Source: Acinetobacter phage SH-Ab 15599 | Reading direction: 5' to 3' (one strand) | Sequence record: MH517022.1 | DNA length: 64,000 bases | Shown: positions 14,974 to 49,164 of the stretch, in pieces | How positions within the stretch are numbered: the stretch's first letter is position 1 | Layout: every line of letters begins with the position of its first letter | Program-made: the position numbers and the translations under genes | The notes under the pieces: model-generated | The model's input: only the letters and a program-made list of their open reading frames with translations | Databases searched by the model: none | What the model was told of the DNA's origin: nothing

Positions 14974-17900
14974 ATGTCTCAAATTTTTCTAGAAGCATTT
15001 AATAGTCAACCATATGATACCGAGAAGGTTGAAAAGAATGGGTTGATGGATATTGTTTATACATTTCAGGATGAATCAAATAATGAATTTCGTTATCATT
15101 TTGAAAAACGCGTAAACTATGGTCGTAATGTATTTGTTTGTACCCTTGGTCAAAAGACTCCAAATCTAAAAACATACAAGCGCATCTTCTCCAATTTTAA
15201 AAATCCAATGCGTGTAATTGCAACGCTGATTAACATTGTTAAAGACGTACATGCCACTCGTAAAGATGTGAAGGGTATTATCTTTGAGATGCCAACTCAA
15301 GCCTTTGGTGCACACGGTAAATTGGTTGATAAAATCCTAGCTCGTGAATTGCGTTCTGTTATTACTGTTGAAGATATGAATTTCTCTATTGAAGAATTTG
15401 AGAAAATGCAACTTCAAGGTACAGTGACAACAGTGAAGCCTAACCGTATGCAAGATGTGTATACTGGTAAGATCATGAATGATATCTTTGCTCAACGCTC
15501 TGCTGGAACGGCAACAACTCCGGCAAAACAGCCTGTTGAAATGAAGAACATTAACCTCAGTACATTCAAAGCAGCTGCACCTCATGTGCCTCAAGCCGCT
15601 GAACAAAATGCCTCTACTGCCCCGAAGGTTGAAGCTGGTAATCTTAGTGGCCAAACCTTTAAAATCTCTGCTTATGACCGCGTAGAAGGCGCTCGTATGG
15701 AGATTGACTTTGCTAAAGATGATTCCGTCACTATTGGTGGGATCAAACGTCCAATGTCAAATTATCTTACATCTGTTGTAGACAAAGTGTTTGGTTCTCA
15801 ACCAGTTGATACAATCAAGAAGGTTGTAAACAAGTTGGTTGTTGATCTTCATCTCGGTACAGTAGAAATTGCTGACCAATTAGTGAATTTGAAGAAGGTA
15901 TTGGAAAAGGAAGGAGCAAAAGTCTCTCTTGAAACTCCATTCCCAGCTGCTGAAACGTCTCCTGAACCGTTTCCAGGCAGCCAAACTACTGACGGCGTGA
16001 AATTCAACTTCTCTTATGAAACTCATGTTCTCACTATGCCATCTGTTAAGGGCTACGATATTGGTTTAGTTTTGAATCAATTGTTAGGTGCATTCTCAGA
16101 ATCTTTTGAGAAGATGTCAAACAATGCGTATAAGATGGTAAAAGAGGAATTTCCAATTGAAAATTTCCTTGGTTTGTTAGCGAAGGTATCATTCAATAAA
16201 TTGATCGCCACGCGCATTTCCCCTAATTGGAGAAAAATTGTAGATGAAGCAGAGAATGTATACAGTCTATCAACTACATTCTATACATTGGTTGATCCAG
16301 ATTCTGAAAAATTTTTGGATGACTACGGTATCCTTGTTACATTCAAGAAAGATGATGCTGGCGTCTATCGTTTCATGAATTTGCAGTCTAAATCTAAATT
16401 GACAGAAGCAGCTATCAAGAAAGTACAATCTGCAGGAGCTTCAGTTGTTGATCAAGGTATTTCAGTAGCAATTACTGAAGATTGTAATCTTGAAAATAGT
16501 AAGGTTATTGTAGAGTTCATCAAAGCAAGTGACGACGCTTATACATTCGCGAGCCAAAGAGCGATCGATTACAAATTCAACGGTTACAAAGCAACCTACA
16601 AACCGAAGTATGCTGAAGTGAGCGTTCGCTTCAATAATACGCATATCTGCGGTCTTGAAGGGACTCCATTAGGTTCTTGGAACTCTGTTGTTACTAGCGA
16701 TAATACCATTGAATTTCTTATGATCAACAGCATTGAGAAGTTCTATCAATTGATGGATGCTCTCAAAGATTTCAACTTCCCTGAATTGTTGCCAACAGCT
16801 ATTAGAAATGGAAGCCAATACATTGCCGATGTATATGCTACTACTGGTTTGGAACAAGGCGAGAAAATATTCCCGCTTAAATCTGGCGGAGAGCTGAAAG
16901 TGGAGATTTACGGTGGTCTTATCTTCGCTACCATCAGTGGAGCTTCTTTCCCAGTAAATCTCAGACATCCAGAAGTGTTCTTCAACAAAGAGCGCACAAG
17001 CTTCCGTCTTTCTACTCAAGAATACAATACTGATGGCATTAAAGATTTCTTTGCTTCATTTGATGCTTTTATTAATACTCAATTGAACTCGGTTATTGGA
17101 AAAACTAATGAGCCTGTTATCTATGAAGCAACTGGTAAGTTTGAGACCACTGGCGTTGAAATTGTATTGACTCCTAGAGATAAAGTGTCAGCTTCAGTCG
17201 CTAAACAGGTGAAAGAAGTTATCAAAACTGTAGATGATACAGTTGCAGAAGCAGTTCAACCAGTGACTATTGATTTTGATAATCAAGGGCTGATTACCAT
17301 CAAAACAAACAGTATCTTAGCAGCGTATGTTGCTTGTGAACAGTTGATCGAGCAAACGAACAAGATCAGTAACTTTGCTATTATCAAAGTAAAAGAGTTG
17401 TTTGATGCTACTGGTTTCAACAAGAAAAGCCTATCTGTTGAATATAATTTTGAAGTTACTGGCAAAAATTCTGCCAATGTCAAGGTTCCAGCTGGCGCTC
17501 AAAAATCAGTTACAATGATTGCTCATTGTTTAGGGTTCTCTTTGAGTAGTGTTGATAACGGGGTACTTTCATTCCAAGGTGGAAATCCATCAGCTTTACA
17601 TTTTAACATTCATGTTCTTGGTAAACAATTGAAGACTCCGGAACTTTCTACTGATAAACCAGATGTAGTTATTCAGGCAACTAAAACTCTGGCTAAAAAG
17701 GCTCCTAAACTGGATAAAGTACGTCTTAATCCAGAAGCGTACTCATTTACAGCTGACGGGCGAGAGATTGCTCGCGCAGTAAAACGTAAAGTCAAGGGTG
17801 TGGATTCATCTGGTTGGGATGTGAGTGAATTTCAATCTGGAATTTCTCTTACTCAGTACAATTCTGTTGTAACGCTATTCAATGAATTTAAAGCGAAGTA

Positions 17901-18822
17901 CATTGCTTGGTTTATGGAAAATGCGGCTAGTGTTCAGATTCCAGAACTTGACCTTGGTCAATTCTCCACAGTGAAACCTGACGTCAAAGCGGCGTTCAAT
18001 ACTCTTTCTGTGGGTCTTCCGTCTCAAGACCGTGACAACAGTAAAACATTTGAATCAAATGGCGTAATTGTTAAGATTTTTGACAAAGGTGTTTCATTTG
18101 AGTCTGTTACTCCTAAGGGAAGCGTATCAAATATTGAGACTCGTCTGAAAGCTCACGGTTTGAAGACTTCTAAACGTATGGTTGGGGATATTGTTCTCAA
18201 GTTCTCCCGTGGAAGAAACGACTATGAAATGCGTATCAATGAAAATCGCATTATGTTCAAAGGTGTGCCGCAAGGTGTTCCTCATTCAGCTTCAAACTTT
18301 GTCAACGTTCCATCTTCTGTAGCTAATGGAACAGAAGCGCAAAACAACTTGATTAGAGACGGCTTGAGAAAGCTCTACACTGAAGAGGCTCCAGCGGCTC
18401 GTTTCTCTCGCTTCTTAGCTTCTATGTCTAGTCTTAATGAAACAACTAATACAGACGATAGACGTAAATCTCAAGTGACAGTTGACATTGATATGACTAA
18501 GCAAGCGAATGTAGACCTCATCAAGTCAATCCTGTCTCCATCCGGTAAGATGAATGAGTCTATCAAAGAAGATTTGACTGGCGTAGCTCCTAAGCGTAAC
18601 AAAGTTGATAAGAAATTGTTTGAAACTACATTACGCGGTCTAGGGTTCTACCAACCTACATTCTCTTATGGCGGCGCAGGGTTCCAGTTGACTTTGAATG
18701 AAGGTGTAGTTGATATCCTACCAACTTATGGTAATATCGTAAATCTTCAGAAGTTATTGAAGGCTCGTTTGGGCGCTGAGATTGTTACTGATGATCGCGG
18801 CGGCTTAACATTCTGCTTTTAA
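14974..18822 (+). CDS. Large hypothetical protein, 1282 aa, orphan
   Basis: Uninterrupted 3.8-kb ORF with RBS agagga. No recognisable catalytic motif. Occupies the position of primase gene 61 in T4. Confidence 0.6.
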   Translation: MSQIFLEAFNSQPYDTEKVEKNGLMDIVYTFQDESNNEFRYHFEKRVNYGRNVFVCTLGQKTPNLKTYKRIFSNFKNPMRVIATLINIVKDVHATRKDVKGIIFEMPTQAFGAHGKLVDKILARELRSVITVEDMNFSIEEFEKMQLQGTVTTVKPNRMQDVYTGKIMNDIFAQRSAGTATTPAKQPVEMKNINLSTFKAAAPHVPQAAEQNASTAPKVEAGNLSGQTFKISAYDRVEGARMEIDFAKDDSVTIGGIKRPMSNYLTSVVDKVFGSQPVDTIKKVVNKLVVDLHLGTVEIADQLVNLKKVLEKEGAKVSLETPFPAAETSPEPFPGSQTTDGVKFNFSYETHVLTMPSVKGYDIGLVLNQLLGAFSESFEKMSNNAYKMVKEEFPIENFLGLLAKVSFNKLIATRISPNWRKIVDEAENVYSLSTTFYTLVDPDSEKFLDDYGILVTFKKDDAGVYRFMNLQSKSKLTEAAIKKVQSAGASVVDQGISVAITEDCNLENSKVIVEFIKASDDAYTFASQRAIDYKFNGYKATYKPKYAEVSVRFNNTHICGLEGTPLGSWNSVVTSDNTIEFLMINSIEKFYQLMDALKDFNFPELLPTAIRNGSQYIADVYATTGLEQGEKIFPLKSGGELKVEIYGGLIFATISGASFPVNLRHPEVFFNKERTSFRLSTQEYNTDGIKDFFASFDAFINTQLNSVIGKTNEPVIYEATGKFETTGVEIVLTPRDKVSASVAKQVKEVIKTVDDTVAEAVQPVTIDFDNQGLITIKTNSILAAYVACEQLIEQTNKISNFAIIKVKELFDATGFNKKSLSVEYNFEVTGKNSANVKVPAGAQKSVTMIAHCLGFSLSSVDNGVLSFQGGNPSALHFNIHVLGKQLKTPELSTDKPDVVIQATKTLAKKAPKLDKVRLNPEAYSFTADGREIARAVKRKVKGVDSSGWDVSEFQSGISLTQYNSVVTLFNEFKAKYIAWFMENAASVQIPELDLGQFSTVKPDVKAAFNTLSVGLPSQDRDNSKTFESNGVIVKIFDKGVSFESVTPKGSVSNIETRLKAHGLKTSKRMVGDIVLKFSRGRNDYEMRINENRIMFKGVPQGVPHSASNFVNVPSSVANGTEAQNNLIRDGLRKLYTEEAPAARFSRFLASMSSLNETTNTDDRRKSQVTVDIDMTKQANVDLIKSILSPSGKMNESIKEDLTGVAPKRNKVDKKLFETTLRGLGFYQPTFSYGGAGFQLTLNEGVVDILPTYGNIVNLQKLLKARLGAEIVTDDRGGLTFCF

Positions 18823-20831: not shown

Positions 20832-20928
20832 ACAATAATCCCAAATACAATGGCGTCTAAATGGCGTCATTTTTATTGCTTCTCCATAAATATTCTCAGT
20901 ACAAGAATTTTAACATTGGAAGAAGCCC

Positions 20929-22689
20929 ATGAGCAATCGCCAACCAGATAGTTTTGACTTCAGAGATATTCAAGAGTCATTACAACAGTTCTTATCAACA
21001 GACCCTAGATTCCAAGATGTGAACTGGAAAGGTTCAGTTGCGGCTAGGATGATAGACCTTCATGCATATAACACTTCTATCAACGCATCTTCTGTAGGAT
21101 TCGCCTTTAATGAAGGATCGTTGCATTCAGCTACAATCAGAGAAAATGCAGCTGCTAAGGCCAGCGGAGTTCTTAATTATCTCCCTGCATCCAAGCGCTG
21201 TTCTGAATTGTACGTAAAATTAGAAGTATCTCCTTCAACCGTCAATCCAGATAGTGAAATTGCATTTGACCGAGAAGTAAGATTTGTTGGCGTTAGCAAT
21301 CAGGTTACTCTTAATTTTGTACCAGATACCACTTATAAAGCTCAGCTTGAAGACGGATTGTATACATTCCCTTCAGTGAGACTTATACAAGGTGAACGTG
21401 TAACTAACAGATTTATTGTTAATACCGCACAATCTATTGAAACATATATTATCCCAAATCAAAATATTGATATCAATACTTTGAATGTTATGGTGAAAGA
21501 GGGCGATACCCTCATGCCTTACACTCGGTATAAACATCCTAATCAACTTGGTAAAAACAATCGTTTATTTTATCTCCGCATTAACCCTATGGGACAATAT
21601 ACAATAGAGTTCGGAGATAATGTATTCAGTCGTCAATTGGAATACGCTGAAACTGTTGTTATAGATTACGTTTCAACTAAGGGAGATGAAGGAAACGGAG
21701 CCGCTAAAGTAGCCCCGTCTGGAGCCATTGGAGGTTCAACTAACATTGCGGTGACAATGTTATCTCAATACAGTACTGGAGGCGCTGATGAAGAGTCTAT
21801 TGAATCCATCAAACGTTTAGCTCCACTAGGATTTGGTTCAAACGGGGCTTGTGTTACAGATGCAGACTTCATCTCCGCTACCAAAGAGATCATGGGCGAT
21901 TCAATCTCTGTAAATGCTTGGGGCGGTGAACAAAATGATCCTCCAAAATATGGTTATACATTCATCTCTGTGAGAGGCAAAGATGGTAATGCTATTGACC
22001 AATATACAAAGGATTATTTGAAAGAACAACTACAGCCGCTTTGTGTTGGACAAATTACTCCTGTAATCAGAGATGCTGCTATCACATATCTCTATACAGA
22101 TGTGAAATTTGATTATAATGAAAATAGAACTGTCTTAACCAAATCTCAATTGGAACGTAAGGTTGAAGAAGCCTTGATTGCATATTCCAAGAGAAATCTA
22201 GAACAATTCAGTCAAGATTTTGATAACTCTGTTTTAAACGCATATGTCAAATCTATTGATAATTCTATTACTATTGGACAAACCAATATAGCATTTTATC
22301 AATATAATGATCAAGCTGAAGCCAACTACTATTTCAGTGGAAAACAGTCATTCGATTTTCCTATTGTAGATGGATCTGTAGTTGTGAGTGGATTTAAACC
22401 TCTGGAGACGGATAACAATCTGTACAACTACGAGTTATATGAATCAAACAAACAATTATTGATGAGACGTATCAATATTGCAAATGGCAGCATTTCTTTG
22501 TATCCAGGCAAATACGGAAGTGTTGATCATGCAAATGGCGTAGTCAATATTCAGAATCTCTATATTGATGAATTATCTCCGCGTTTGAAGGTATTTGTTC
22601 AGAAGGATGCTTTGGACAAATCTGCAAAGGCAGAGAAGGATGTGATATTCCAGATTGACGTCGGTACTGTTACGGGGGCTAAACTATGA
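20929..22689 (+). CDS. 6: Baseplate wedge protein (gp6-like)
   Basis: Blocks align to T4 gp6: EFGDNV...VIDYVSTKGDEGNGAA versus YFGEGE...IEYISTNGADANGAV, and EESIESIKRLAPLG...CVTDADF versus PEDIERIRELGTIK...CVTATDYDTF. Confidence 0.7.
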   Translation: MSNRQPDSFDFRDIQESLQQFLSTDPRFQDVNWKGSVAARMIDLHAYNTSINASSVGFAFNEGSLHSATIRENAAAKASGVLNYLPASKRCSELYVKLEVSPSTVNPDSEIAFDREVRFVGVSNQVTLNFVPDTTYKAQLEDGLYTFPSVRLIQGERVTNRFIVNTAQSIETYIIPNQNIDINTLNVMVKEGDTLMPYTRYKHPNQLGKNNRLFYLRINPMGQYTIEFGDNVFSRQLEYAETVVIDYVSTKGDEGNGAAKVAPSGAIGGSTNIAVTMLSQYSTGGADEESIESIKRLAPLGFGSNGACVTDADFISATKEIMGDSISVNAWGGEQNDPPKYGYTFISVRGKDGNAIDQYTKDYLKEQLQPLCVGQITPVIRDAAITYLYTDVKFDYNENRTVLTKSQLERKVEEALIAYSKRNLEQFSQDFDNSVLNAYVKSIDNSITIGQTNIAFYQYNDQAEANYYFSGKQSFDFPIVDGSVVVSGFKPLETDNNLYNYELYESNKQLLMRRINIANGSISLYPGKYGSVDHANGVVNIQNLYIDELSPRLKVFVQKDALDKSAKAEKDVIFQIDVGTVTGAKL

Positions 22690-24488
22690 AGCACTCTACC
22701 CTAGTTGGGAAGCATCTGCCTAGACATTTCAAAAATCAGTATGCAGATTTTGTTTTGTTTATAGAGACGTACTACAAATATATGGAAACCCCAGGCTTCA
22801 TGAATGAAGTCATCAGGGGTCGTATCCAGCGAGGAGACTCTGAACTCGTAAGAGATGATCCAGAGTTGTTTATTCAGACTCAAGATGAACGTTTGTCTGG
22901 CATACGTCAAGACCTTGCAGATATTGATGTCGCCAATTGGAGACCGCCTGAATGGTGGATCAACAATATGGTTGATATCCAAAACATGGAGCGCATCAGA
23001 GAGACATTAAAAACATTTGAGGATCAAACATTTAAAACTTCAGATGGGACTAATTTTGATGCGCAATTTGTACATGATTCAACAGTTTCATCTTGGATGT
23101 CAGATTCTGGATTTCCAGAAGCTACGTTGTTTGGAGGCGATCATGTATTGACAGCTCGTATCCTTCGTTCTTTGTATCAATTGAAAGGAACAACAAAGGC
23201 TTTGGAATTGTTTTTCAATGTCTTCTATGGAGAGGCTGTAAGCATTATTAACCCTAATAATCTGATAGCCGTGTTGGATGACAACTTTGTTTTGGATTCC
23301 AGTGTCGTATTGAAAGATGATATTGTATTCTCTGAATTTGGTATTATCATCAAGGCTAAGCACGATAAATCATATTATGAACCTTTGTTCACAGACGTAT
23401 ACTTGAAGATGTTCCATCCATCTGGGTTCGGCGTCAATTTCATTGAAGGCCAGCCAGATGAAACGCCTATAGTTGTTAGACAATTGGATATTGATTTGTT
23501 TAAACCGTATGCAAACGGTATTTCCAATAACGGAACAATTCAAGTGAAACAACTACAAGGTGGTAATAGTTGGGAATATACAATTGACGGCGGTTCTGTA
23601 TACAGAAAGGGGTATGGAACGACTTTCCAAATATCTGATGGTCATTATCTATCTGGAAAGGTAGGAGCGAGACAAATTACCCCTGCTGGAGAAAAGTCCC
23701 AAACCAAGTTCATGGGGGCTTTCTATGTAGAAACAAAACAACCTTTGGTTACCGTATTCGCCGACTCAGAATATAAGAGAATCAAGGGCAGTACGTTACC
23801 ACGTATCAAAGTTGAACTGTTCAAATATTCTGGAGAACTTCTTCAAACTACCAAATCTGATAATTCTGGCATTTACAGATTTGTATTTCTTGATGGTATT
23901 CCAGTAGGCGAATATGTTATTACAGTTACATCAACTGCTGGAAATCAATCAACAATTACTTTCAATGCAAACTACCAAGACAAGTTGTATCCTGTTCCAA
24001 ATCTGAAATTGGTTAATGATACTGGAGGGAGTGCAACTGATTACATCTCTAAAGACGGGCTTGTTGAAGTCTCTGAAAGTCAGGGTTACGCATGGGAATA
24101 TTCAACAAACGGCGGTTCCACTTGGAATGATGGTTCTGGCACTTCATTTAGATTGAAGCACGGCAAATATCGGTCTGCGACTATCATGGCTAGAACCAAG
24201 AAAGGTATTTTCCATAGCCAATCAGGTTTTATTAACGCCCCTGTAAATATCATTTTGTTGAACCCTAAAATCAATGTATCCAGAGTTGAAGATAAATTGA
24301 TAATCAACTCTACAGACGTACAGACAGTATCTGTTTATAACAACGGTTCTTACGTTGGGACATATGATCTCAAAAACAACAATGTGGAACTGTTTATACA
24401 ACCCGTGGATTGGGATGAATATCGTATAGTTGGAACTGACATGGCGGGTAACACAACCGAAGTCAACTATACTGTTCAAATCCTATAA
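22686..24488 (+). CDS. Baseplate or tail structural protein with tandem Ig-like repeats
   Basis: 600 aa. Internal repeats WEYTIDGGSVYRKGYGTTFQISDGHY and YAWEYSTNGGSTWNDGSGTSFRLKHGKY. Located between gp6 and the sheath. Confidence 0.5.
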   Translation: MKHSTLVGKHLPRHFKNQYADFVLFIETYYKYMETPGFMNEVIRGRIQRGDSELVRDDPELFIQTQDERLSGIRQDLADIDVANWRPPEWWINNMVDIQNMERIRETLKTFEDQTFKTSDGTNFDAQFVHDSTVSSWMSDSGFPEATLFGGDHVLTARILRSLYQLKGTTKALELFFNVFYGEAVSIINPNNLIAVLDDNFVLDSSVVLKDDIVFSEFGIIIKAKHDKSYYEPLFTDVYLKMFHPSGFGVNFIEGQPDETPIVVRQLDIDLFKPYANGISNNGTIQVKQLQGGNSWEYTIDGGSVYRKGYGTTFQISDGHYLSGKVGARQITPAGEKSQTKFMGAFYVETKQPLVTVFADSEYKRIKGSTLPRIKVELFKYSGELLQTTKSDNSGIYRFVFLDGIPVGEYVITVTSTAGNQSTITFNANYQDKLYPVPNLKLVNDTGGSATDYISKDGLVEVSESQGYAWEYSTNGGSTWNDGSGTSFRLKHGKYRSATIMARTKKGIFHSQSGFINAPVNIILLNPKINVSRVEDKLIINSTDVQTVSVYNNGSYVGTYDLKNNNVELFIQPVDWDEYRIVGTDMAGNTTEVNYTVQIL

Positions 24489-24519
24489 TAGCATAAGTAA
24501 TTCAAATGGGAGTTTCACT

Positions 24520-25032
24520 ATGGCTTTTTCTATCTCACCACAGGTGAACATTTACGAGAATGACGCCACGTCCTTATCAGTTCCTTTTGTTGGGGGTGTA
24601 GTAGGGGCTATGGCTGGACTTTCTCAATGGGGATCGGTATCAAAACCGATCCAATTGACTAAAGGATTTGATGAGTATCTTGAAAGATTAAGAGAGCCGA
24701 CTGTTGAATGTTTACAATCATTCTACATCGCTAAGGATTTCCTTCAATACAATGGCGCAATGATGTTTGTTAGAGCCGTTGGCCCAAAAGCAAGAAATGC
24801 TTGTTGGCAACCTGCTGGTGATAACGTAAAACATGATTTTATCAGTATTTCATCTGCTCCTCATCTAAATATTGTTGATACATCTTCTGAGCCGAATGCT
24901 AATGTGGAATTGTCTCTGAATGGAGTCATTGAAGCTAAGCAGATTACAGATCAAAATGGTAAGACGACTTTCCAAATTGAAGTGCCAGAAGGCAAGAAGA
25001 TTGTATACATGAAATTGACGAAAGTCGATTGA
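24520..25032 (+). CDS. Tail-sheath N-terminal-domain paralog with a C-terminal Ig-like extension
   Basis: MAFSISPQVNIYENDA...QWGSVSKPIQL...FYIAKDFLQYNGAMMFVRAVGPKARN aligns to the T4 gp18 N-terminus (FQWGPAFQIKQV...FMSAMNFLQYGNDLRVVRAVDRDTAKN). An extra 75 aa follows. RBS ggga. Confidence 0.6.
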   Translation: MAFSISPQVNIYENDATSLSVPFVGGVVGAMAGLSQWGSVSKPIQLTKGFDEYLERLREPTVECLQSFYIAKDFLQYNGAMMFVRAVGPKARNACWQPAGDNVKHDFISISSAPHLNIVDTSSEPNANVELSLNGVIEAKQITDQNGKTTFQIEVPEGKKIVYMKLTKVD

Positions 25033-25096
25033 GAAGGTGTTAAAACCTAAGTAAACAGAGTTGAATTTAAACAACTAATGGATAAGGAGGAAGCTG

Positions 25097-25402
25097 ATGG
25101 CTTTCAATATTTCTCCTCAAATTAACATCTTTGAAGTCGACAATACAACCTTTGTCGAAACCAAGGGTGATACGATGGGGGCAATGGCGGGTTACTCTCG
25201 CTGGGGAGCAGCAAACAAGGTTGCTCTTATCACTTCTGGCGCTGCTCAGTTCGCTGAACAATTCTTCAAACCAGATACGCAGACTGCTCTGCCATTCTTT
25301 GTTGCAACGGATTTCCTTCGTTATAGCAACAAGATGATGTTTATCCGAGTTGTAGGTGACAAGGCTAGAAACTCTATTGTTGACACTGAATTAGGAGCAT
25401 AA
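25097..25402 (+). CDS. 18: Tail sheath N-terminal fragment (first roughly 100 aa of gp18)
   Basis: MAFNISPQINIFEV...RWGAANKVALI...FFVATDFLRYSNKMMFIRVVGDKARN. Strong RBS aaggagg. Stops with TAA 5 nt before the next ATG. Confidence 0.65.
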   Translation: MAFNISPQINIFEVDNTTFVETKGDTMGAMAGYSRWGAANKVALITSGAAQFAEQFFKPDTQTALPFFVATDFLRYSNKMMFIRVVGDKARNSIVDTELGA

Positions 25403-25407
25403 CAATA

Positions 25408-27015
25408 ATGGCTACAGCATCAAACGTTTTGGTATTAAACGAAGACGAATTGGAGTTTGCTGATTTTGCAGGTTCGCCATTTATTGGTCGCTATCCAGGC
25501 AGTCTAGCAAACGGCATCATGATTTCAATCGCCGATTCAGCTACATTTAGCACTTGGCCATTTGCCTACGCATTTGAGTTTACTCCAGATGCTGGTCAAT
25601 ACGCTATTGCAGTGCTTGATACAACTGGCAAAATTCGCGGTACAGGTTCTGCTTACCAACAGTTCAATGTATACTTTGAACGTATTCGTACAGCTGACCC
25701 AGCGGTAGATTCTACTATCACATTTGGTGGAGCTACTGTTTCTTATAACACAGCCGATACAATGGAAGTGTTCTTGAACAAAGTTGAAACTGCGTTCTTG
25801 GCTGCTGCTTCTAACAATACAAAGTATTCTGTTGTTTCTAAGAAAGTGAGTGGTAACACTGCAGTGATGACTATTAACAACCTAGTGTTGGGAAGTCAGA
25901 CACCTGCATTTACTACTGATGAATACATTCATATCTCTAAAGCGGTCACCAAAGCTGGTGGTTACGGTACGATGATTGAAAAGTATGAATCTGTTTCTAT
26001 GAATCGTGGCGCTAAGAAGGAAGATGGTACAACCAACTATTCTCCTGATATCATCAACCGTCGTTCAGTATGGATTTATCAAAACCCTGCTATCTCAACG
26101 TTGACTCCTGGCGATTACGTTTTAGCTGGTGGCGTGGACGACTATGACACGACTCTTTACAATGCTTTATTGGCATATAAAAATGCTGAAAAGTACAAAT
26201 TCAATTACTTGTTCGGTGCAACTCGTCCACTCGAGAAAAAACTGATTCATGAAATTGTAGAAGGTCGTCGTGACTGTATCGGGTTCGTTGCGCCTGATAT
26301 GAATGACGTTGTAAACAATACTGGACGCGAAATGGAATCAGTAATTGATTTCCGTAATGTGCGTTTCAATATTGCATCAACATACGTCTTCACTACTGAC
26401 AACTGGGCTCAAGTGTACGATCAATACAATGACCGTTATGTTTGGATTCCAACTTGTGGCGGTACTGCAGGTTTGAAAGCTCGTACTACAAACAACGAAA
26501 ACGCGTGGAAATCGCCAGCTGGTTACACTCGTGGTGTTTACTCTGGTTACAACCGTTTAGCTTGGTCTGCAGAAAAGGCTCAGCGCGACGAGTTGTATAA
26601 GATTGGTGTCAACTCTATTGTTGACGCGGGTTCTGACGGTATTATCTTGTTTGGCGATAAGATGACTACCAACAAACCTACTGCATTCAGCCGTATCAAT
26701 GTGCGTTCTGCGTTCATCGTAGCTGAACAGTCAATTGCCAACTATGCGAAATACTACTTGTTTGAGAATAACAACGCTGAAACGCGTTCTCAATTCTTGA
26801 ACGCTGTGAATCCATTCTTCCGTAAGATGGTTACACAAGAGGCGTTTGAACGAGTGGAAACTCAAGTTGACGAAAACAACAACCCGTTGTCTGTTCGTCA
26901 AGAGAACCGCTTTGTTGGTAACTTCCGTATCTGGCCTCAGTATAGCATCAATTACATTGATCTGTACTTCCAAGCTGAAGGAACTAATGCTTCTTTTGAA
27001 GAAAATGAAGCATAA
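25408..27015 (+). CDS. 18: Tail sheath body (gp18 middle and C-terminal domains)
   Basis: C-terminus VWIPTCGGTAGLKARTTNNENAWKSPAGYTRG...FSRINVRSAFIV...NFRIWPQYSINYIDLYFQA aligns to T4 gp18 RWVPLAADIAGLCARTDNVSQTWMSPAGYNRG...FDRINVRRLFNM...TFYIQPARSINYITLNFVA. Confidence 0.85.
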   Translation: MATASNVLVLNEDELEFADFAGSPFIGRYPGSLANGIMISIADSATFSTWPFAYAFEFTPDAGQYAIAVLDTTGKIRGTGSAYQQFNVYFERIRTADPAVDSTITFGGATVSYNTADTMEVFLNKVETAFLAAASNNTKYSVVSKKVSGNTAVMTINNLVLGSQTPAFTTDEYIHISKAVTKAGGYGTMIEKYESVSMNRGAKKEDGTTNYSPDIINRRSVWIYQNPAISTLTPGDYVLAGGVDDYDTTLYNALLAYKNAEKYKFNYLFGATRPLEKKLIHEIVEGRRDCIGFVAPDMNDVVNNTGREMESVIDFRNVRFNIASTYVFTTDNWAQVYDQYNDRYVWIPTCGGTAGLKARTTNNENAWKSPAGYTRGVYSGYNRLAWSAEKAQRDELYKIGVNSIVDAGSDGIILFGDKMTTNKPTAFSRINVRSAFIVAEQSIANYAKYYLFENNNAETRSQFLNAVNPFFRKMVTQEAFERVETQVDENNNPLSVRQENRFVGNFRIWPQYSINYIDLYFQAEGTNASFEENEA

Positions 27016-27067
27016 ATAAATCAAATGAGAGGGAGTTCTACTCCCTCTTCACAGTGAGGAATGATTA

Positions 27068-27595
27068 ATGTCAGTTCAAGACCTAAAGAATGCGGTGAAG
27101 AGTGGTTTGTATCGTAACCACAAATTCCGCATTCTCTTCAACTTTCCTGAGTTCGCAGGTACAGCTGATGTTGTAAAACAAGCAGCTATTTTAGCGCGTT
27201 CTTCAAAGACTCCAGCTTCAACTCTGGGTGTTATTGAAGTACCGTTTGAAGGACGTACAGTTCCGTTGCCAGGTGATCGTCAGTTTGAAGAATTTACTGT
27301 TACCTTGTTAGCGGTAAACGATTTCAAAGTGCGTAATACATTAGAAATTTGGTCTGAAGCAATGAACGGTAGTGAATCAAACACTACTACATCTTTGGAT
27401 TATACTGATTTCTTACGCGACATTACCGTTGAGTTGCTTAATATTAACGATCAAGTTATCAAAACATATACATTGCAAGACGCATGGCCAAACCTTCTAG
27501 AAGGTGTTGACTTAGATCGCGGCGCAATGGATAACTCGTCTGAATTCAATATTTCGTTGCGTTACTTACAATATGTTTCAGACACAACTCGATAA
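27068..27595 (+). CDS. 19: Tail tube protein (gp19-like)
   Basis: 175 aa. GDRQFEEFTVTLL matches T4 gp19 GDRTFDDWTVTVM. Follows the sheath gene. Confidence 0.75.
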   Translation: MSVQDLKNAVKSGLYRNHKFRILFNFPEFAGTADVVKQAAILARSSKTPASTLGVIEVPFEGRTVPLPGDRQFEEFTVTLLAVNDFKVRNTLEIWSEAMNGSESNTTTSLDYTDFLRDITVELLNINDQVIKTYTLQDAWPNLLEGVDLDRGAMDNSSEFNISLRYLQYVSDTTR

Positions 27596-27606
27596 GGTGT
27601 AACAAC

Positions 27607-29154
27607 ATGGCAGGTTCATGGATTGGTTTAACGAGCAAAAAGGCAAAGGACCTTGAAAAGAAGATCGTTCCGTATCAACTACGTGCAACGGATCCACTTG
27701 ATGGTTCCCTTCTCTTTAGCGGATTCCACCATGAATCTGCTAAGTTGGCTCTGGATGGAACGTTTCAAAACAGTTCTGCTCTCATTAATGAATATCGCGA
27801 TATGGCGATGGATCCAGATGTTGACATGGCTGTTGATGATATTATCAACGCTATTGTAACCTGTGAAGAAGATAAGAAAGCCGTTGAACTTGACTTCAGT
27901 AAGGTCGATATCAGCGAGAAAATGATGGACAGATTCAGAGAAGAATTTGACTTCATTTTAGACCTTATGGATTTTAATGAAAATGGATATGAACGTATCA
28001 GACAATGGTACGTCGACGGAAGACAGTATATCCAACCTATTATCAATCCAGCATCTAAGAAACAAGGCTTAGCCAAATTGGTGTTTCTTGATTCTCGTAC
28101 AGTTCAGAAAGTGAAGATGATTGAACGTCGTCACGCTGTAAGAGAAGGGAAACAGGTTGATGAAATTGCTACAATTAAAAGTTGTTTCGTTTTTAACCCG
28201 TATTGGGCTCCCGAATACAACACCTTCTCTAACAGCTTATCAATGCCAGCTGTAACTCGTTTAGACAATCAAGAATTAAACGAGGACAGCCTTATTTACG
28301 TGCATTCTGGCGTAAAAGATCCATTGACTGGGGTAGTGGTATCAGATTTAGAGAAAGCCAAAAAACCACTTAATAACCTTAAAATGCTACGTGATGCTCA
28401 GGTTATCTACCGTCTGACGCGTTCTGTTGAGAAAAGAGTGTTTAAGGTGGATGTAGGTTCACTACCTCCTAAGCAAGCTGAAGAGCAGATGAAAAGGGTC
28501 ATCCGCGAGCATAAAACGAAACTTGAATATGACCCTAAAACTGGTAAAGTTAATGGACGTGGTCATCAACAACATATGTTACAAGACTTCTGGCTACCAG
28601 TACGTGAAGGCGGTAGAGGTTCAGATGTAACAACATTAGCTGGTGCACAAAACCTTTCTGAAATTGATGATATCTTATATTTCCAAAAACTTCTTTACCG
28701 TTCATTGAATACTCCGGAAGGACGTCTGGGCGAACAACAACCTGTGATTTTTGGCAATAGAAACGCTGAAATGACTAGAGATGAATGGAAATTTAACAAA
28801 TTCATCATGCGTAAGCGTAAACGCTATGCTGACGGCGTCTTCATTCCGCTATTGCGTGTTCAATTGATCTCAAAGGGTGTTGTAACAGAAGAACAATGGG
28901 ATGAATTATTCGCTCGCCAACTTCAGTTCAAATGGACTTCAGACTCTTGGGTTGAAGATCAACAAGAGACTGATCAACTCCTTAATAGATTCAACAATAT
29001 ATCAGCAGTTGAAGAACAAGTTGGTAAATACGTTTCAATGGAGTGGGTATACGAGAACATCTTGCGGTTCACACCTGAACAGATTCAACGCGAGAAAGAA
29101 CGTATAGCCAAAGAGCCAAAACCAATCGAGGAGAATCCAAATGACGGATACTAA
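27607..29154 (+). CDS. 20: Portal protein (gp20-like)
   Basis: 515 aa. Position is sheath, tube, portal, then protease, as in T4. Size is similar to T4 gp20. Confidence 0.75.
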   Translation: MAGSWIGLTSKKAKDLEKKIVPYQLRATDPLDGSLLFSGFHHESAKLALDGTFQNSSALINEYRDMAMDPDVDMAVDDIINAIVTCEEDKKAVELDFSKVDISEKMMDRFREEFDFILDLMDFNENGYERIRQWYVDGRQYIQPIINPASKKQGLAKLVFLDSRTVQKVKMIERRHAVREGKQVDEIATIKSCFVFNPYWAPEYNTFSNSLSMPAVTRLDNQELNEDSLIYVHSGVKDPLTGVVVSDLEKAKKPLNNLKMLRDAQVIYRLTRSVEKRVFKVDVGSLPPKQAEEQMKRVIREHKTKLEYDPKTGKVNGRGHQQHMLQDFWLPVREGGRGSDVTTLAGAQNLSEIDDILYFQKLLYRSLNTPEGRLGEQQPVIFGNRNAEMTRDEWKFNKFIMRKRKRYADGVFIPLLRVQLISKGVVTEEQWDELFARQLQFKWTSDSWVEDQQETDQLLNRFNNISAVEEQVGKYVSMEWVYENILRFTPEQIQREKERIAKEPKPIEENPNDGY

Positions 29155-44075: not shown

Positions 44076-44651
44076 TCAGGTATTCAACAATTGATTGGAA
44101 AGTTCGCTTCTCTCGTGAATCAGCTTATTCCAAGCAAATCCCATTGCAACTGCCGCCACAATAGAACCGCCAATGATAGCTAGTGGGGATAGTTCATAAC
44201 CCAAAACAGCTAGTCCGAATACCAATGTAAGTGCAAGTCCAACAGTTATAAAAAATGCCCAACGCATAATATCAATTTTAACTTCATTTTGTTTCAATTG
44301 AATTAATGTGCCGAGCATTTCTTGAGAGATAACATAAGAACGGAAGTCGCGGATGTCATAAAATTGACGTTTGATCCAAGATACAAATACATTAATGAGA
44401 AGTCTATTTTGGTCTCGCCCAAACCGTAATACTCCTTCATTTAATGCATTGATCACCGCTTTGCTATCAATATCGTCAAAAAAGTTGAAGACAGCTGTGG
44501 CAATTTCCTCAGCTGTCGAAATACTGTTTTTGAACGACGTCTGTAAATCTAAACACATAGAATACAAGTTGATAGCAACTTCGTCTTCTGTTTGGTCAAT
44601 AGGTTTGACCCACTCATATTGTTTAGAGATTTCAGGTATCGTCAGCATCAT
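44076..44651 (-). CDS. Hypothetical protein with a C-terminal double TM anchor
   Basis: C-terminus FFITVGLALTLVFGLAVLGY...IIGGSIVAAVAMGFAW. Confidence 0.45.
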   Translation of the reverse strand: MMLTIPEISKQYEWVKPIDQTEDEVAINLYSMCLDLQTSFKNSISTAEEIATAVFNFFDDIDSKAVINALNEGVLRFGRDQNRLLINVFVSWIKRQFYDIRDFRSYVISQEMLGTLIQLKQNEVKIDIMRWAFFITVGLALTLVFGLAVLGYELSPLAIIGGSIVAAVAMGFAWNKLIHERSELSNQLLNT

Positions 44652-44661
44652 AGTCTAACTC

Positions 44662-46308
44662 CTAGAAAAGGGAGTTAAGGCTGAATGAAGTCGGTGCCTT
44701 AGCCTCCCATTTGATTGCGACTAAAAAGTTTGTAAGTGGATTGATAAAACATTTACTGAATGCAGCATCTTTATCAATGAACTTCTCAAGATTAAACTCC
44801 TTCGGTAGTTGATCATCATACGCAATAACTTCCATACCAAACGGTGAGCCTTTTCTTAAAGGTAACACGTAGTATTTATTGCCGCTACGAAGTGGCATAA
44901 TTTGCGGTGCATCAACCTTAGTTAATAAGGTATTATGATTTATCGCCCCTTTAACATGATATGGGGTTCCTTTAACCGCAACGCCGTTACTGAGATAATC
45001 TTCAATATTGTTGATATTCTGAGCCGCCCCGTATTCATTGATATTACGAGATTTCATGAATTCAACTTCACACTTTGCTACAAAATCATGTAGTTCAGTT
45101 TTCTTCTCTTCAAGAGCCAATTGATAGCCCGTTTTCATCCACTCACGGCAGAACATTGGGTAGTTAGACTTGCGAGCCTCTAAACCAACGATTTTAAGCT
45201 TAGGAGTGGCGTAGCGCACGCCTTCGTTATCAGTTAATAACATAGCGTAACGCTTCTTGGTTGTAAAGATTGCTACCATAGCAATAGCTTCACGTTTGAA
45301 GAACAAAGCGTTGATTGGACAGTTATATGATGAAGCTAGTTCTTCAGCCCATTGAATGTATAGAGGTTCAATGGTTGTAGTCATCAATTCATCAAGCTTA
45401 TCTGTAATCTCAGAATCTGATAATTCGTCCCATCCAGAAGCCTTAACCACACCTTTGAACTCAGTATAGATCGAGTCAGTATCTCCATAGAAGCAATGGT
45501 CACCTTCAAGATTATAAGTTTTGTTGATCCATTCATTCAACTTAAACATAATATGTCGAGTTGAACATTGACCCGCAGTTGTAATAGCTTCAGCAATACG
45601 GATTTCAAAGTGGTCGGCGAAGTTTTCATTTGCAATCGCGCCATAACCCGCGTTTGCAGCAATCTTATGTGCGTGTTGGTTTGAGTCTCCGTTTTGGATT
45701 TTTGTTTCCCAAACATCATATTCTTTGTAATACGCTTCTGTCTTCTCTAATTGCTCATCCAAGTATTTTTTCTTGAAGGATTCAAGAGAACGTTCATCGT
45801 CTTTCATTGCCTTTTTAATGACCTTACGCGTATCATATAGGTCTTTGAATACACGGCGCAACAATGAAGGTTTTTCAGTCTTAAACATTGCAAGGTTTGG
45901 AGCCATACAGACTTTCAAACGTTTGAGAGTTTGGAACTGATATGGGGCTTCAAAGTAGATGTCCCAAATACCTTTACGCTCACGGAAACGTTGAGCATAT
46001 AAACGGGTGTATTGGGTTTGTTCTTCTTCCGGAATATCATCCATCTCTTGAGCCAGAGCGTCAAGAATCTTCTCTGTAATACCCCAAGGTACAAGCGTCT
46101 CAATACCCATGTTGAATTGTTGTGCCATATGCGGATAACCTATGTGTTCAGATGAGTTCGTGATTCTCACCTCGGAATTACATCCAGCTGTATGTCGCCA
46201 TACAGAGCAGACTATATCATCACCCACGTTATACGTTTGGTACGCTGTTGTAAGTAGCGCAGATGAGCTATACTCACCGTGTCTCCCGTTTCCATTTAAG
46301 CCATACAT
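44662..46308 (-). CDS. 43: DNA polymerase gp43, C-terminal fragment (family B palm, fingers and thumb)
   Basis: Motif B KIAANAGYGAIANENF and motif C YGDTDS. The track extends to 46323 through a GTG. The first ATG is at 46308, one nt after the stop of the HNH gene. Confidence 0.85.
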   Translation of the reverse strand: MYGLNGNGRHGEYSSSALLTTAYQTYNVGDDIVCSVWRHTAGCNSEVRITNSSEHIGYPHMAQQFNMGIETLVPWGITEKILDALAQEMDDIPEEEQTQYTRLYAQRFRERKGIWDIYFEAPYQFQTLKRLKVCMAPNLAMFKTEKPSLLRRVFKDLYDTRKVIKKAMKDDERSLESFKKKYLDEQLEKTEAYYKEYDVWETKIQNGDSNQHAHKIAANAGYGAIANENFADHFEIRIAEAITTAGQCSTRHIMFKLNEWINKTYNLEGDHCFYGDTDSIYTEFKGVVKASGWDELSDSEITDKLDELMTTTIEPLYIQWAEELASSYNCPINALFFKREAIAMVAIFTTKKRYAMLLTDNEGVRYATPKLKIVGLEARKSNYPMFCREWMKTGYQLALEEKKTELHDFVAKCEVEFMKSRNINEYGAAQNINNIEDYLSNGVAVKGTPYHVKGAINHNTLLTKVDAPQIMPLRSGNKYYVLPLRKGSPFGMEVIAYDDQLPKEFNLEKFIDKDAAFSKCFINPLTNFLVAIKWEAKAPTSFSLNSLF

Positions 46309-46309
46309 T

Positions 46310-47209
46310 TCAGGCACCCACACTTGGCTGTACTATGTCTTGCGACTGTCTAGTCGTTGAACCTTTCAGAATTTCTTTGATCTTTACAGTATAAACAGAA
46401 ACATCTAATCCTTTGAGATTTAATGGTCTGACGTAATTGGAAGTGAGAGCGCCGCTGTTAGTAAAAATCGCTTTACCATCAACATGAGCCTTTCTATAAA
46501 AATCGAACAATTGTTCTTCTGTCCAATTCTTAATTTCTTCTTTCTTACGTTCAAGACTAGCTTTGAATTTGTTCTTTCCTTCTTCAGATTGCATAGGGTT
46601 GTTTGTAGAGAACCCCTTGCCATCTAAATGATGAACTAATTCTCCAGAAGTATATCTTGGATCATTCTTTTCAGTCATGAATATATTCCCATCTTTGTCT
46701 TTTACAACAACTCGACCAGTCATATATTCTTTACTTTTTTGAACGATAGCTTTAGCAGTCTCTGCATCAGCGCCCATATATTTCTTCCCTTTCATATCAA
46801 GGCGTTGTACACCTTTCTTTGAAAGACTAATCTTTTGCTTCACATCTTCTCTTTTAGAAGGATTGTTTTCTCCGCTGTTTAGTTCTCTAGCTAATTTTCT
46901 TGCCGACTCACAATATTCAGCCCCATCTCTGGTTGTTACCATAAGATGATAGGCATATCCTGTAGATTGAGTCTTTGCACCTAGCATAAGAAGTCTATGT
47001 GCTTCCACGTGTTCTAATATAGATAATTCTACAATATTCCACTTGGCGTTTCTGTACTCATAAAAATCGCAGATTGGTAAAATATGATGGCGCTCAACAA
47101 CATCAGAACCTTTAGCAGATTGAATGTATTCAACGTATTGCTCTAGCAACGCGCTGTCTCCATTCTTATAAGTCTGCTTCAAAGCATCTAACATCTGTTT
47201 ACCGTTCAT
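46310..47209 (-). CDS. HNH homing endonuclease with NUMOD-like modules, inserted inside gene 43
   Basis: HHILPICDFYEYRNAKWNIVELSILEHVEAH is an HNH motif. GENNPSKREDVKQKISLSKKG is a NUMOD3-like repeat. Reading frame differs from both pol fragments. Confidence 0.8.
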   Translation of the reverse strand: MNGKQMLDALKQTYKNGDSALLEQYVEYIQSAKGSDVVERHHILPICDFYEYRNAKWNIVELSILEHVEAHRLLMLGAKTQSTGYAYHLMVTTRDGAEYCESARKLARELNSGENNPSKREDVKQKISLSKKGVQRLDMKGKKYMGADAETAKAIVQKSKEYMTGRVVVKDKDGNIFMTEKNDPRYTSGELVHHLDGKGFSTNNPMQSEEGKNKFKASLERKKEEIKNWTEEQLFDFYRKAHVDGKAIFTNSGALTSNYVRPLNLKGLDVSVYTVKIKEILKGSTTRQSQDIVQPSVGA

Positions 47210-47301
47210 AATCACTAACTCTGACTTGGCTGCTGATTGTCTCAGTGAGATTTCCCAGCAATTAAAGAGATTTTCATTGTGTTATTTCTAACACAAGCCC
47301 C

Positions 47302-48576
47302 CTATATGTTAAGGGCATTTGCATCGCTAGACATTACATTTTCATAACGCCCTGGGGTCACCTCTTTAACATAACCTCCGGCATAGTCTGGTTTTGAGTT
47401 TACGCGTGGACGAATTTCAGAAAACTCATTGTTACGCGCCCCGTAACCATACATGAGATATTGCCAAGGTAACACGGTTGCATTTGTATCATCTGGATTA
47501 CAGTGATACAAGAATGCTAATGTATACGCCAGTTGCAATAGTTTTGTTTTCTGAGCAATACGCAATACCAAGTTTACGTCGTGAATGTTATATCCAATAT
47601 AGTTTTGGTAATCTTTGATATAAAATTCTGTTAAGCTTGAGAACTCGCTATGATCAACCTTTTCTTCTTTGAGATAATGTTGAGCTGCAGTATTCAGCTT
47701 GTTGTTATCCAATTCAATAAAGCCGTGTTTTGCTACACTTTCTTTTAAGTCTAGGTTTGAAATACCTGAGATTGTAAATGTAACCTCTTCACCATATTTG
47801 CCGTTGAAGGTACGTTTGCGACAGTAACCATGAGGTGAAATACGATTCAGAATATCTCGACCCAACAGCTTATCAATGCGGTTACAGAAGTACGCAATAT
47901 CAAACGTATCACTGTTCCAACCTGAGATGTAGTCATATTGGTGGGATTCATACTGATCTACAAAATCATACAGAAGATCAATTTCATTATCATATCCAAC
48001 ATAGACAATGTCTTCTGGCTTGACCGTCTTACGAACTTGCTCAGGTAATTTGTTTACATCAAATGTACCCAAATCATGGCCTTGGAAATGCTCTAGACCT
48101 AACACATAGAACTTTTCAGTGAATGTATCATATGTTGTAATGGCTGTAATAGGGTATAAGGCTAATGCAGGATCAGGGAAGGGGCCAGGCTGAATTTTAC
48201 CGTCAGCAGTAATTGTACCAGATTCAACCTCAATATCGACCAATGCCCCTCTGATATATTTCATATCAAATTTGATTTCTTTTTCAGGGTAATGCTCTGC
48301 TGAGTATTGAGCTAATGGGTTATCAATACCGTAGATTTTGAAGTTGGGGATGTTCTTCATCTGCTCCATCCACTCTTCCATAGCGTAGTTGTTATCAAAC
48401 ACTATGCGTTCAAGAGGGATACCATTCAGAGACTTATAAGGACTATCAGCATTTGTAGATACGGTATACAAAGAAGGCTGAAAACTAATTTCACGCATCT
48501 TTCTCACGCCGTCTTCAACATAGCGCTCAAGAATGCGGTCTTTCTGTTTTGTTAGGTTGGTATAAAAGCGTTGCAT
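47302..48576 (-). CDS. 43: DNA polymerase gp43, N-terminal fragment (exonuclease domain up to motif A)
   Basis: MQRFYTNLTKQKDRILERYVEDGVRKMREISFQPSLYT parallels the T4 gp43 N-terminus. The fragment ends ...VMSSDANALNI at a TAG inside the motif-A (DxxSLYPS) position. Confidence 0.85.
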   Translation of the reverse strand: MQRFYTNLTKQKDRILERYVEDGVRKMREISFQPSLYTVSTNADSPYKSLNGIPLERIVFDNNYAMEEWMEQMKNIPNFKIYGIDNPLAQYSAEHYPEKEIKFDMKYIRGALVDIEVESGTITADGKIQPGPFPDPALALYPITAITTYDTFTEKFYVLGLEHFQGHDLGTFDVNKLPEQVRKTVKPEDIVYVGYDNEIDLLYDFVDQYESHQYDYISGWNSDTFDIAYFCNRIDKLLGRDILNRISPHGYCRKRTFNGKYGEEVTFTISGISNLDLKESVAKHGFIELDNNKLNTAAQHYLKEEKVDHSEFSSLTEFYIKDYQNYIGYNIHDVNLVLRIAQKTKLLQLAYTLAFLYHCNPDDTNATVLPWQYLMYGYGARNNEFSEIRPRVNSKPDYAGGYVKEVTPGRYENVMSSDANALNI

Positions 48577-48654: not shown

Positions 48655-49164
48655 ATGAAGCCGCCTGTTTATTCAAATGCTCAATCTAATAATGCTATGT
48701 GTATTATAGAGACCATGGAAAATGTTCAGTTCAAGCTTTATGACTTTCAACTCCCGATGCTATCTTTCAACTCAACAATTTTGGGCACTGATAGTAAGGT
48801 ACAAATCAGAGTACCAGGCACTCATGTAGAGTTTGATTTCCTCCAAATCAACTTCTTTGTAGATGAATTATGGGAAAACTACTTTGAATGTTACGATTGG
48901 TCTATGTTAACAATCGGTAGCCCTGACCCATTTGAACATACAAAAACCATTTCTATTGTTCCCCTAGATAGTAATAAGAACCCAGTTGGACGCGTCTTCG
49001 TCTTTTTAGATGCTCATATTATGAATATGGCACCTGTTCAATTAGACGGAGAAGGAGAAACAACTGATATCGTTATGGGATTAACAATTTCCTTCTCTGA
49101 AATGAAAGTTGAAAAATGGTTTGATGCAGATGGATCAACCAATGTAGTTATCTCCAAGGACTAA
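48655..49164 (+). CDS. Hypothetical protein, 169 aa
   Basis: Plus-strand ORF with RBS aaggaa. Confidence 0.4.
   Translation: MKPPVYSNAQSNNAMCIIETMENVQFKLYDFQLPMLSFNSTILGTDSKVQIRVPGTHVEFDFLQINFFVDELWENYFECYDWSMLTIGSPDPFEHTKTISIVPLDSNKNPVGRVFVFLDAHIMNMAPVQLDGEGETTDIVMGLTISFSEMKVEKWFDADGSTNVVISKD

Follow-up and report, generated by a model that had tools for sequence, protein, structure and literature searches.

The tail sheath locus described here belongs to Acinetobacter phage SH-Ab 15599, which has been studied as a therapeutic agent against carbapenem-resistant A. baumannii. Coordinates refer to the window, the whole 64-kb stretch of DNA that was analysed (record MH517022.1), whose identity with this phage was taken from exact protein matches, and features are on the plus strand unless stated. 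The locus is composed of three consecutive open reading frames (ORFs). ORF1 (24520..25032; 170 amino acids (aa); SHAb15599_00026) is annotated as hypothetical and reads as a paralogous sheath small subunit, with an N-terminal module (N-module; aa 1-95, 24520..24804) that corresponds, in the T4 sheath protein gp18, to the handshake arm at the N-terminus and the N-terminal portion of domain III, followed by a C-terminal domain predicted to be an all-beta, probably Ig-like sandwich (aa 96-170, 24805..25029). ORF2 (25097..25402; 101 aa; SHAb15599_00027), also annotated as hypothetical, would be the sheath small subunit proper, made up of the N-terminal arm, the N-terminal section of domain III and a short strand that serves as linker. 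ORF3 (25408..27015; 535 aa), annotated as tail sheath protein, would be the large subunit, to which the outer domains and the C-terminal part of domain III belong, as does the C-terminal domain with its handshake arm. The fission junction between ORF2 and ORF3 (25393..25410) consists of an AGGAG inside the 3' end of ORF2 (25393-25397), 10 nucleotides (nt) upstream of the ORF3 start, the TAA stop of ORF2 (25400-25402) and, beyond a spacer of 5 nt, the ATG of ORF3 at 25408, which opens a frame different from that of ORF2. ORF2 is preceded by a strong Shine-Dalgarno sequence, AAGGAGG (25084..25090, 6 nt 5' of the ATG), and TAAGGAGGAAG at this site is kept in the related phage nACB2 and in the metagenomic loci L004, L011 and L017. 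The Shine-Dalgarno-like GGGAG of ORF1, read from the sequence at 24508..24512 (7 nt 5' of its ATG), is weaker than that of ORF2; its equivalents in relatives are AGGAG or CAGGAG.

By sequence and predicted fold, ORF1, ORF2 and ORF3 are members of the gp18-type sheath family. All three matched PHROG 23 ("tail sheath"), ORF1 at positions 25-114 (expect value (E) 1.9e-9), ORF2 at profile positions 26-111 (E 6.5e-12) and ORF3 at profile positions 99-473 (E 1e-67). T4 gp18 residues 4-102 aligned with ORF1 residues 5-106 (E 1e-4), residues 4-92 with ORF2 residues 5-93 (E about 1e-5 to 1e-6) and residues 391-653 with ORF3 residues 278-532 (E 2e-46). ORF3 scored above the Pfam gathering thresholds of Phage_sheath_1 (PF04984; 46.6 bits vs 31.4) and Phage_sheath_1C (PF17482; 39.9 vs 26.9), and ORF2 scored 21.3 against PF22671, which covers the N-terminal arm together with domain III's N-terminal region, under the Pfam cut-off of 27. 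The first 95 residues of ORF1 are 45% identical to residues 1-94 of ORF2 (BLASTP E 2e-29), and all consensus residues of the sheath N-module are retained in ORF1. The matches and coordinates bear out the first-pass annotation, made from the sequence alone, in that three consecutive ORFs all carry tail-sheath sequence, that the sheath gene is split, with ORF3 starting in another frame 5 nt after the TAA of ORF2 from its own Shine-Dalgarno sequence, and that the ORF at 24520-25032 is a paralog of the sheath N-module.

Taken together, ORF2 and ORF3 (636 aa) are collinear from end to end with single-chain phage sheaths of 618-637 aa, to which they are about 40% identical, and ORF2 by itself runs collinear with roughly the first 100 residues of these proteins. 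The motif VGxxA(K/R)NA is followed by a short loop without conservation, and the break is positioned in it. A tblastn search found only one sheath body in the window, and a body is found in only one place in the complete genome of nACB2; the N-module alone is present twice. Among 1,577 phage records with a match to the N-module, nACB2 was the only one with two such matches in one record. We recommend that the annotation of ORF1 and ORF2 in SH-Ab 15599 be changed from hypothetical protein to sheath subunit.

The phage nACB2 (GenBank OQ032512) is the closest sequenced phage, with an ORF3 77% identical to that of the window, and its genes nACB2_021, nACB2_022 and nACB2_023 are orthologues in the same three-gene layout (170/98/535 aa), all labelled "tail sheath". 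This is an automated database label and is the sole prior trace of the arrangement. All members of the clade came from a protein-cluster database and its contigs. The three-piece layout was found in the metagenomic loci L004-L008 (170/99/535 aa), L011-L014 (170/98/535 aa), L017 (171/99/534 aa), and L021 and L022 (176/98/538 aa). Two pieces were read in L015 and L025-L027 (100-106/533 aa) and in L016 (88+/534 aa, the upstream part being cut off by the contig end), and the ORF3 identity of these two-piece loci is 47-64%. ORF1 orthologues of 170-176 aa occupy the same position in six lineages. ORF2 orthologues of 98-106 aa are present in all split lineages that could be read upstream of the body, except L020; the ORF of L016 is cut by the contig end and the L019 contig holds only the first 32 residues. 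In no member of the clade does one polypeptide carry both handshake arms and all domains.

Outside the clade, a single-chain sheath was found in every relative examined, i.e., IME250 (631 aa), PhiW-14 (827 aa), two IMG/VR contigs and five JGI contigs; scans of IMG/VR and of the JGI metagenomes for more clade members returned distant single-chain relatives only. In a neighbour-joining tree of the sheath body all split lineages form one clade apart from the single-chain sheaths. The phage had been called T4-like in the first-pass annotation, which does not hold in the strict sense, for it is a distant relative of the Ackermannviridae.

The first-pass annotation had left open an indel or assembly error at 25400 and a programmed frameshift as ordinary causes of the break. 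Either a sequencing indel near this position or frameshifting or readthrough would give one continuous gp18-like polypeptide, and such an explanation would suit two ORFs that lie 5 nt apart and sum to one normal sheath protein. The same stop and restart recurs in nACB2, which was sequenced independently, and in roughly eight more metagenomic lineages (at least eight independent assemblies), so an indel error is rejected. In every split lineage the N-module ORF is followed by a spacer of 2-29 nt and an ATG with a GGAG-type site, so each ORF3 has its own start and ribosome-binding site, and the stop of the N-module ORF is TAA wherever the junction sequence was read. The ORF2 and ORF3 frames are offset by 0 in one set of lineages and by 2 in another. 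Consecutive in-frame stops occur at the junction of nACB2 (TAA TGA), the window reads TAA CAA TAA in the ORF2 frame, and the ORF3 frame of the window is closed by a TGA seven codons 5' of the ORF3 ATG. No slippery heptamer of the X XXY YYZ type was found at the ORF2-ORF3 junction. Because the offset varies, stops are doubled in frame, the ORF3 frame is closed and a slippery site is absent, programmed frameshifting and readthrough are rejected as well, and we attach hardly any credence to an indel or recoding origin of the split. Its recurrence across nACB2 and the metagenomic lineages, found on comparing the sheath loci of related phages as had been advised, agrees with the earlier view of a real, unusual arrangement rather than an artefact. 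The fission of the sheath gene and the existence of the N-module paralog are established by these comparisons.

The most basal lineage, L025-L027 (47% ORF3 identity), has a wedge gene, a 100-aa small ORF and a 533-aa body, and ORF1 is absent from it. Since this lineage has two pieces without ORF1, fission came first and duplication later. In the N-module tree of the window's sub-clade, ORF1 and ORF2 sequences form sister groups with matching internal branching, which indicates a single duplication older than the six lineages, with both copies kept. L019 carries an N-module copy (1196-1843) with an unrelated 120-aa extension, which is 77% identical to the ORF2-type protein of a related lineage (P0132) vs 43% to ORF1 of the window; its sequence points to an independent duplication or gene conversion as the origin of this extended copy. 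L020 has a 207-aa small subunit (1755-2378) with another extension, directly followed by the body and without a plain ORF2. The small-subunit extensions of L019 and L020, of 110-120 aa, are unrelated and have no Pfam family.

Selection on the three ORFs was estimated by the Nei-Gojobori method between four lineages, with synonymous sites near saturation (proportion of synonymous differences, pS, 0.55-0.86). The ratio of nonsynonymous to synonymous substitution rates (dN/dS) was 0.07-0.15 for ORF3, 0.11-0.19 for ORF2 and, where dS could be estimated, 0.12-0.33 for ORF1, both halves of which are constrained. Purifying selection acts on ORF1, ORF2 and ORF3, and the feature is real, conserved and functionally constrained. 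A decaying, functionless remnant of a partial tandem duplication could be annotated only as hypothetical, as ORF1 is in SH-Ab 15599, and could be missing from the basal lineage. This explanation is strongly disfavoured, as ORF1 is intact in six lineages at a saturated pS of 0.7-0.86, with a ratio of nonsynonymous to synonymous proportions (pN/pS) of 0.3-0.4, a conserved Shine-Dalgarno sequence, and a C-domain that is conserved in seven sequences with 18 invariant positions.

An AlphaFold2 (AF2) model was built of ORF2 and ORF3 artificially joined, with an alignment of 33 single-chain homologues. The model had a mean predicted local distance difference test score (pLDDT) of 84.9 and a predicted template modelling score (pTM) of 0.79, and its confidence was low only at residues 1-20 (the N-terminal arm), at residues 100-103 (the fission point) and at the C-terminal end. 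Because residues 100-103 have a pLDDT below 50, a flexible linker is predicted at the junction. The best matches in the PDB were T4 gp18 and the sheath of Klebsiella phage KP1, with template modelling scores (TM-scores) of 0.67-0.69 and an E of 1e-34. The joined model, as the suggested mapping onto gp18 domains had called for, superposes on T4 gp18 with a TM-score of 0.69 and has a gp18-like fold. In the AF2 model of ORF1 alone, residues 30-95 of the N-module reached a pLDDT of 82-87 with the same secondary structure as ORF2, and the nearest structural neighbours were sheath proteins, via the N-module.

These results suggest that an ancestral single-chain, gp18-type sheath gene of about 630 codons, with nearest single-chain relatives in the Ackermannviridae and the PhiW-14 group, underwent a clean fission. 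The fission point would be the loop through which the chain passes from the N-terminal portion of domain III into the outer domains (about residues 92-98 of T4 gp18). The sheath protomer would then be a non-covalent heterodimer, in which the N-terminal handshake arm would come from ORF2, along with the helices and strands needed to complete domain III. ORF3 would contribute the outer domains and what remains of domain III, as well as the C-terminal domain and its C-terminal handshake arm. Both chains would be read from one mRNA, and restart of ORF3 5 nt past the ORF2 stop from the AGGAG within ORF2 would favour roughly equal amounts of the two. Homology and modelling argue strongly for such a two-chain protomer. 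SH-Ab 15599 and nACB2 are both myoviruses that form plaques (PMC10057805 and PMC8878043); therefore, the split sheath works.

The topology of this putative protomer is the TssB/TssC arrangement of type VI secretion system (T6SS) sheaths. The N-terminal strand of TssB and the C-terminal strand of TssC form the handshake, and TssB strands interlace with TssC in domain 2 (PMC5807055). In TssB/TssC (VipA/VipB, IglA/IglB) the fold is split between a small chain with the N-terminal arm and a large chain with the C-terminal arm, as gene architecture and homology mapping suggest here, and the break lies where an outer, lineage-specific domain is inserted, as in ORF2/ORF3. However, in the Pfam scan ORF1-3 matched no TssB (VipA) or TssC (VipB) family and only phage sheath families, and the nearest relatives of ORF2 and ORF3 are single-chain phage sheaths. 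As ORF2 and ORF3 are clearly gp18-type and near phage sheaths, the fission would be independent and within the phage lineage. The outer domain of the T6SS sheath is recognised by ClpV for disassembly; the phage, in contrast, has no ClpV-recycling domain and no T6SS gene context. We know of no T6SS small-subunit paralog with an appended beta-sandwich. T4 gp18 and the sheaths of the Ackermannviridae and PhiW-14-like phages share with the window the same domains in the same order and adjoining tube and portal genes, but theirs is one polypeptide, and here there are two plus an extra N-module paralog.

To our knowledge, phages, pyocins and extracellular injection systems assemble their contractile sheaths from subunits of one chain each, with the two-chain T6SS sheath as the known exception. 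Full-text literature searches for a fission-type phage sheath found none and returned only cases of full-length paralogs; the arrangement is previously undescribed for a phage. More than one sheath-family gene is also found in Afp2/3/4, Pvc2/3/4, Pseudomonas phage PaBG and Campylobacter phages CP220 and CPt10, and for PaBG and CP220 both sheath paralogs were found in virions (PMC7412058 and PMC2853527). Those paralogs are complete sheath duplicates, whereas here only the N-module of about 95 aa is duplicated and the body is single. The comparison with Afp2-Afp4 drawn in the first reading of the sequence is apt for the presence of multiple sheath-family genes, but the likeness is loose because only the N-module is duplicated, and TssB/TssC is the closer analogue.

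In one sub-clade the small-subunit gene was later duplicated, with the upstream copy becoming ORF1, which would have acquired an added domain of about 75 aa, rich in beta strands and probably Ig-like, where the chain would otherwise run into the outer domains. The extension had been described as an Ig-like tail rich in beta strands: AF2 predicts seven strands, at low confidence, in agreement with the second part of that description, and the matches behind the Ig-like label are sub-threshold. These were a match to the Ig-like domain of Peptidase_C25_C (E 1.3e-3, 19 bits, under the cut-off of 25), Foldseek matches to Ig-like and carbohydrate-binding module (CBM) folds that were not significant (E 0.08-0.8), and an hhalign probability of 47% to a repeat of a Big_3_5 protein. 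ORF1 residues 96-170 are probably Ig-like. A PDB profile search with the ORF1 extension gave nothing significant, and no significant Pfam or PDB name could be given to the extensions of ORF1, L019 or L020. An origin of the ORF1 C-domain by copying from the 600-aa wedge protein encoded upstream or from the outer domains of ORF3 was rejected, since no significant similarity was found.

As an alternative small subunit, ORF1 would most likely compete with ORF2 for the same site on ORF3, and ORF1-ORF3 would be a second kind of protomer in the sheath lattice, displaying an extra surface domain. This is suggested by the retention of the whole N-module consensus, by the handshake arm (aa 1-16), which is the best-conserved segment between the paralogs (the ORF1 arm is 73% identical to the ORF2 clade vs 46% for the core), by the lack of a second sheath body in the window or the nACB2 genome for ORF1 to pair with, and by the recurrence of extension-bearing small subunits in other lineages. 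ORF1 would be accessory, because the basal lineage L025 has none. We give about even odds to the hypothesis that ORF1 is an alternative small subunit in the virion sheath.

The retained arm would also suit an end-specific protein that with ORF3 forms only the baseplate-proximal (initiator-type) ring or the neck-proximal ring. Afp4 and Pvc4 are located in a special layer in the published structures of extracellular contractile injection systems. The position of ORF1, with two baseplate-wedge genes immediately ahead of it and the strongly translated pair of ORF2 and ORF3 behind it, would be in line with a restricted role, as would its weaker Shine-Dalgarno sequence and the conserved small palindrome AGTTG-N8-CAACT (25059..25076, without strand) in the ORF1-ORF2 spacer, also found in the corresponding spacers of nACB2, L011 and L017 (L021 has a different palindrome there). 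We nevertheless regard this role as unlikely. The sequence specifies no location, the tail of L025 is built without ORF1, which is thus not needed to start or end a sheath, and the extended small subunit of L020 is seemingly the only one, implying its use along the whole sheath. The extension also differs wholly between lineages, a pattern that suits surface decoration better than a fixed docking adaptor.

A non-structural role, in which ORF1 would bind free ORF3 or the growing sheath through its N-module, block or time polymerisation and be absent from the finished virion, is quite improbable. We know of no precedent for a small-subunit mimic as a sheath assembly factor, and this is counted against it. 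The high conservation of the arm between ORF1 and ORF2 suggests that ORF1 is built into the lattice, and the variable beta-rich appendages resemble exposed decoration domains. On its side, ORF1 evolves somewhat faster than ORF2, and a small-subunit mimic with a bulky appendage could cap competitively, given that sheath proteins tend to polymerise spontaneously into polysheaths (PMC6357053).

The best explanation of the locus as a whole is a TssB/TssC-like ORF2-ORF3 protomer with ORF1 as an alternative small subunit, for which we estimate a probability of roughly 60%. Several points weigh against it. The joined model follows a single-chain alignment, and so indicates compatibility and not association of two separate chains. 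Residues 96-170 of ORF1 are modelled with a pLDDT of only about 50, and we only infer the pairing of ORF1 with ORF3 and its place in the virion. The spacer between ORF2 and ORF3 is 29 nt in two basal lineages, so tight translational coupling is not universal. The architecture of L020 comes from one 3.7-kb metagenomic contig and a singleton protein cluster; the neighbour-joining trees carry no support values and are indicative, the N-module tree being built on about 95 positions. Codon adaptation (0.53 for ORF1, 0.57 for ORF2, 0.50-0.52 for the wedge proteins) gives no clear hint of abundance and was rejected as a proxy for it because it is too noisy. The literature yielded neither virion proteomics nor a structure for SH-Ab 15599 or nACB2, and the papers mentioning these phages are silent on the sheath.

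A wider reading is that the clade independently reached the two-chain design of the T6SS and then a swappable small subunit, with paralogs that carry different appended domains pairing with one large subunit so that distinct protomers, decorated or ring-specific, could occur in one tail. We hold this tentatively, with somewhat more doubt than belief. If true, it would illustrate from nature how sheaths of the TssB/TssC type could arise from single-chain phage sheaths. A gp18-type sheath cut at the topologically equivalent point indicates that the fold tolerates fission in a working virus, and the split-sheath lineage may serve as a tractable model for the evolution of the TssB/TssC arrangement. 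Duplication of the small subunit, with domains appended that differ by lineage, suggests an inexpensive means of diversifying the tail surface with the contraction machinery untouched, which is of relevance to the engineering of decorated sheaths or tailocins. The split sheath is notable to specialists of tail structure, yet is a variation on well understood machinery.

The sheath genes lie in a phage morphogenesis module with baseplate wedge, tail tube, T4-type portal and prohead protease genes. A gp6-like baseplate wedge gene (20929-22689) and the gene of a 600-aa baseplate wedge protein (22686-24488) are located 5' of ORF1, and 3' of ORF3 come the genes of a gp19-type tail tube protein (27068-27595) and of a T4-type portal (27607-29154). 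The 600-aa wedge protein has a conserved N-terminal Baseplate_wedge region followed by weak SdrD_B, CarboxypepD_reg and Big-type beta-sandwich matches, and its homologue in basal L025 has only 211 aa; since the latter is so short, the beta-sandwich additions to the wedge protein and to ORF1 appear to fall in the same sub-clade.

Palindromes of the form AGTTG-N(4-9)-CAACT occur in three copies in the window (25059-25076, 18708-18726 and 44567-44580) vs 0.5 expected. A regulatory RNA hairpin between ORF1 and ORF2 was rejected, as the predicted fold was not stabler than shuffled sequence (z -0.2 to -1.6). A T4-type late promoter that would separate the transcription of ORF1 from that of ORF2 was also rejected: the octamer TATAAATA occurs zero times on both strands of the 64 kb vs 4.6 expected, despite the T4-like structural genes. 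A sigma-70 promoter scan performed no better than chance. A perfect hairpin with a 9-bp stem (AGAGGGAGT...ACTCCCTCT) is present at 27028-27048 between the sheath and tube genes, and a terminator-like hairpin with a T-run at 20849-20871, just 5' of the gp6-like gene; the two may bracket a baseplate-sheath transcription unit.

Other genes of the phage deserve mention. The family B DNA polymerase is likewise encoded by separate ORFs (44662-48576, minus strand), a second split gene in this phage group: a 424-aa ORF with the exonuclease domain (47302-48576), a 301-aa ORF without a Pfam family between the polymerase pieces (46310-47215) and a 553-aa ORF with the polymerase domain (44662-46323), all on the minus strand. 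The layout is the same in nACB2, whose genes 049 and 051 both bear the label "DNA polymerase", with gene 050 annotated as hypothetical. A 1282-aa ORF among the replication genes (14974-18822) had no Pfam match at E <= 1e-3, and its nACB2 counterpart (gene 015, 1093 aa) is annotated as hypothetical. Finally, a 169-aa ORF on the plus strand (48655-49164), embedded among minus-strand replication genes, had no Pfam match; its nACB2 counterpart (gene 052) is labelled "tail tube" and would be a second tube-like protein far from the tail module.

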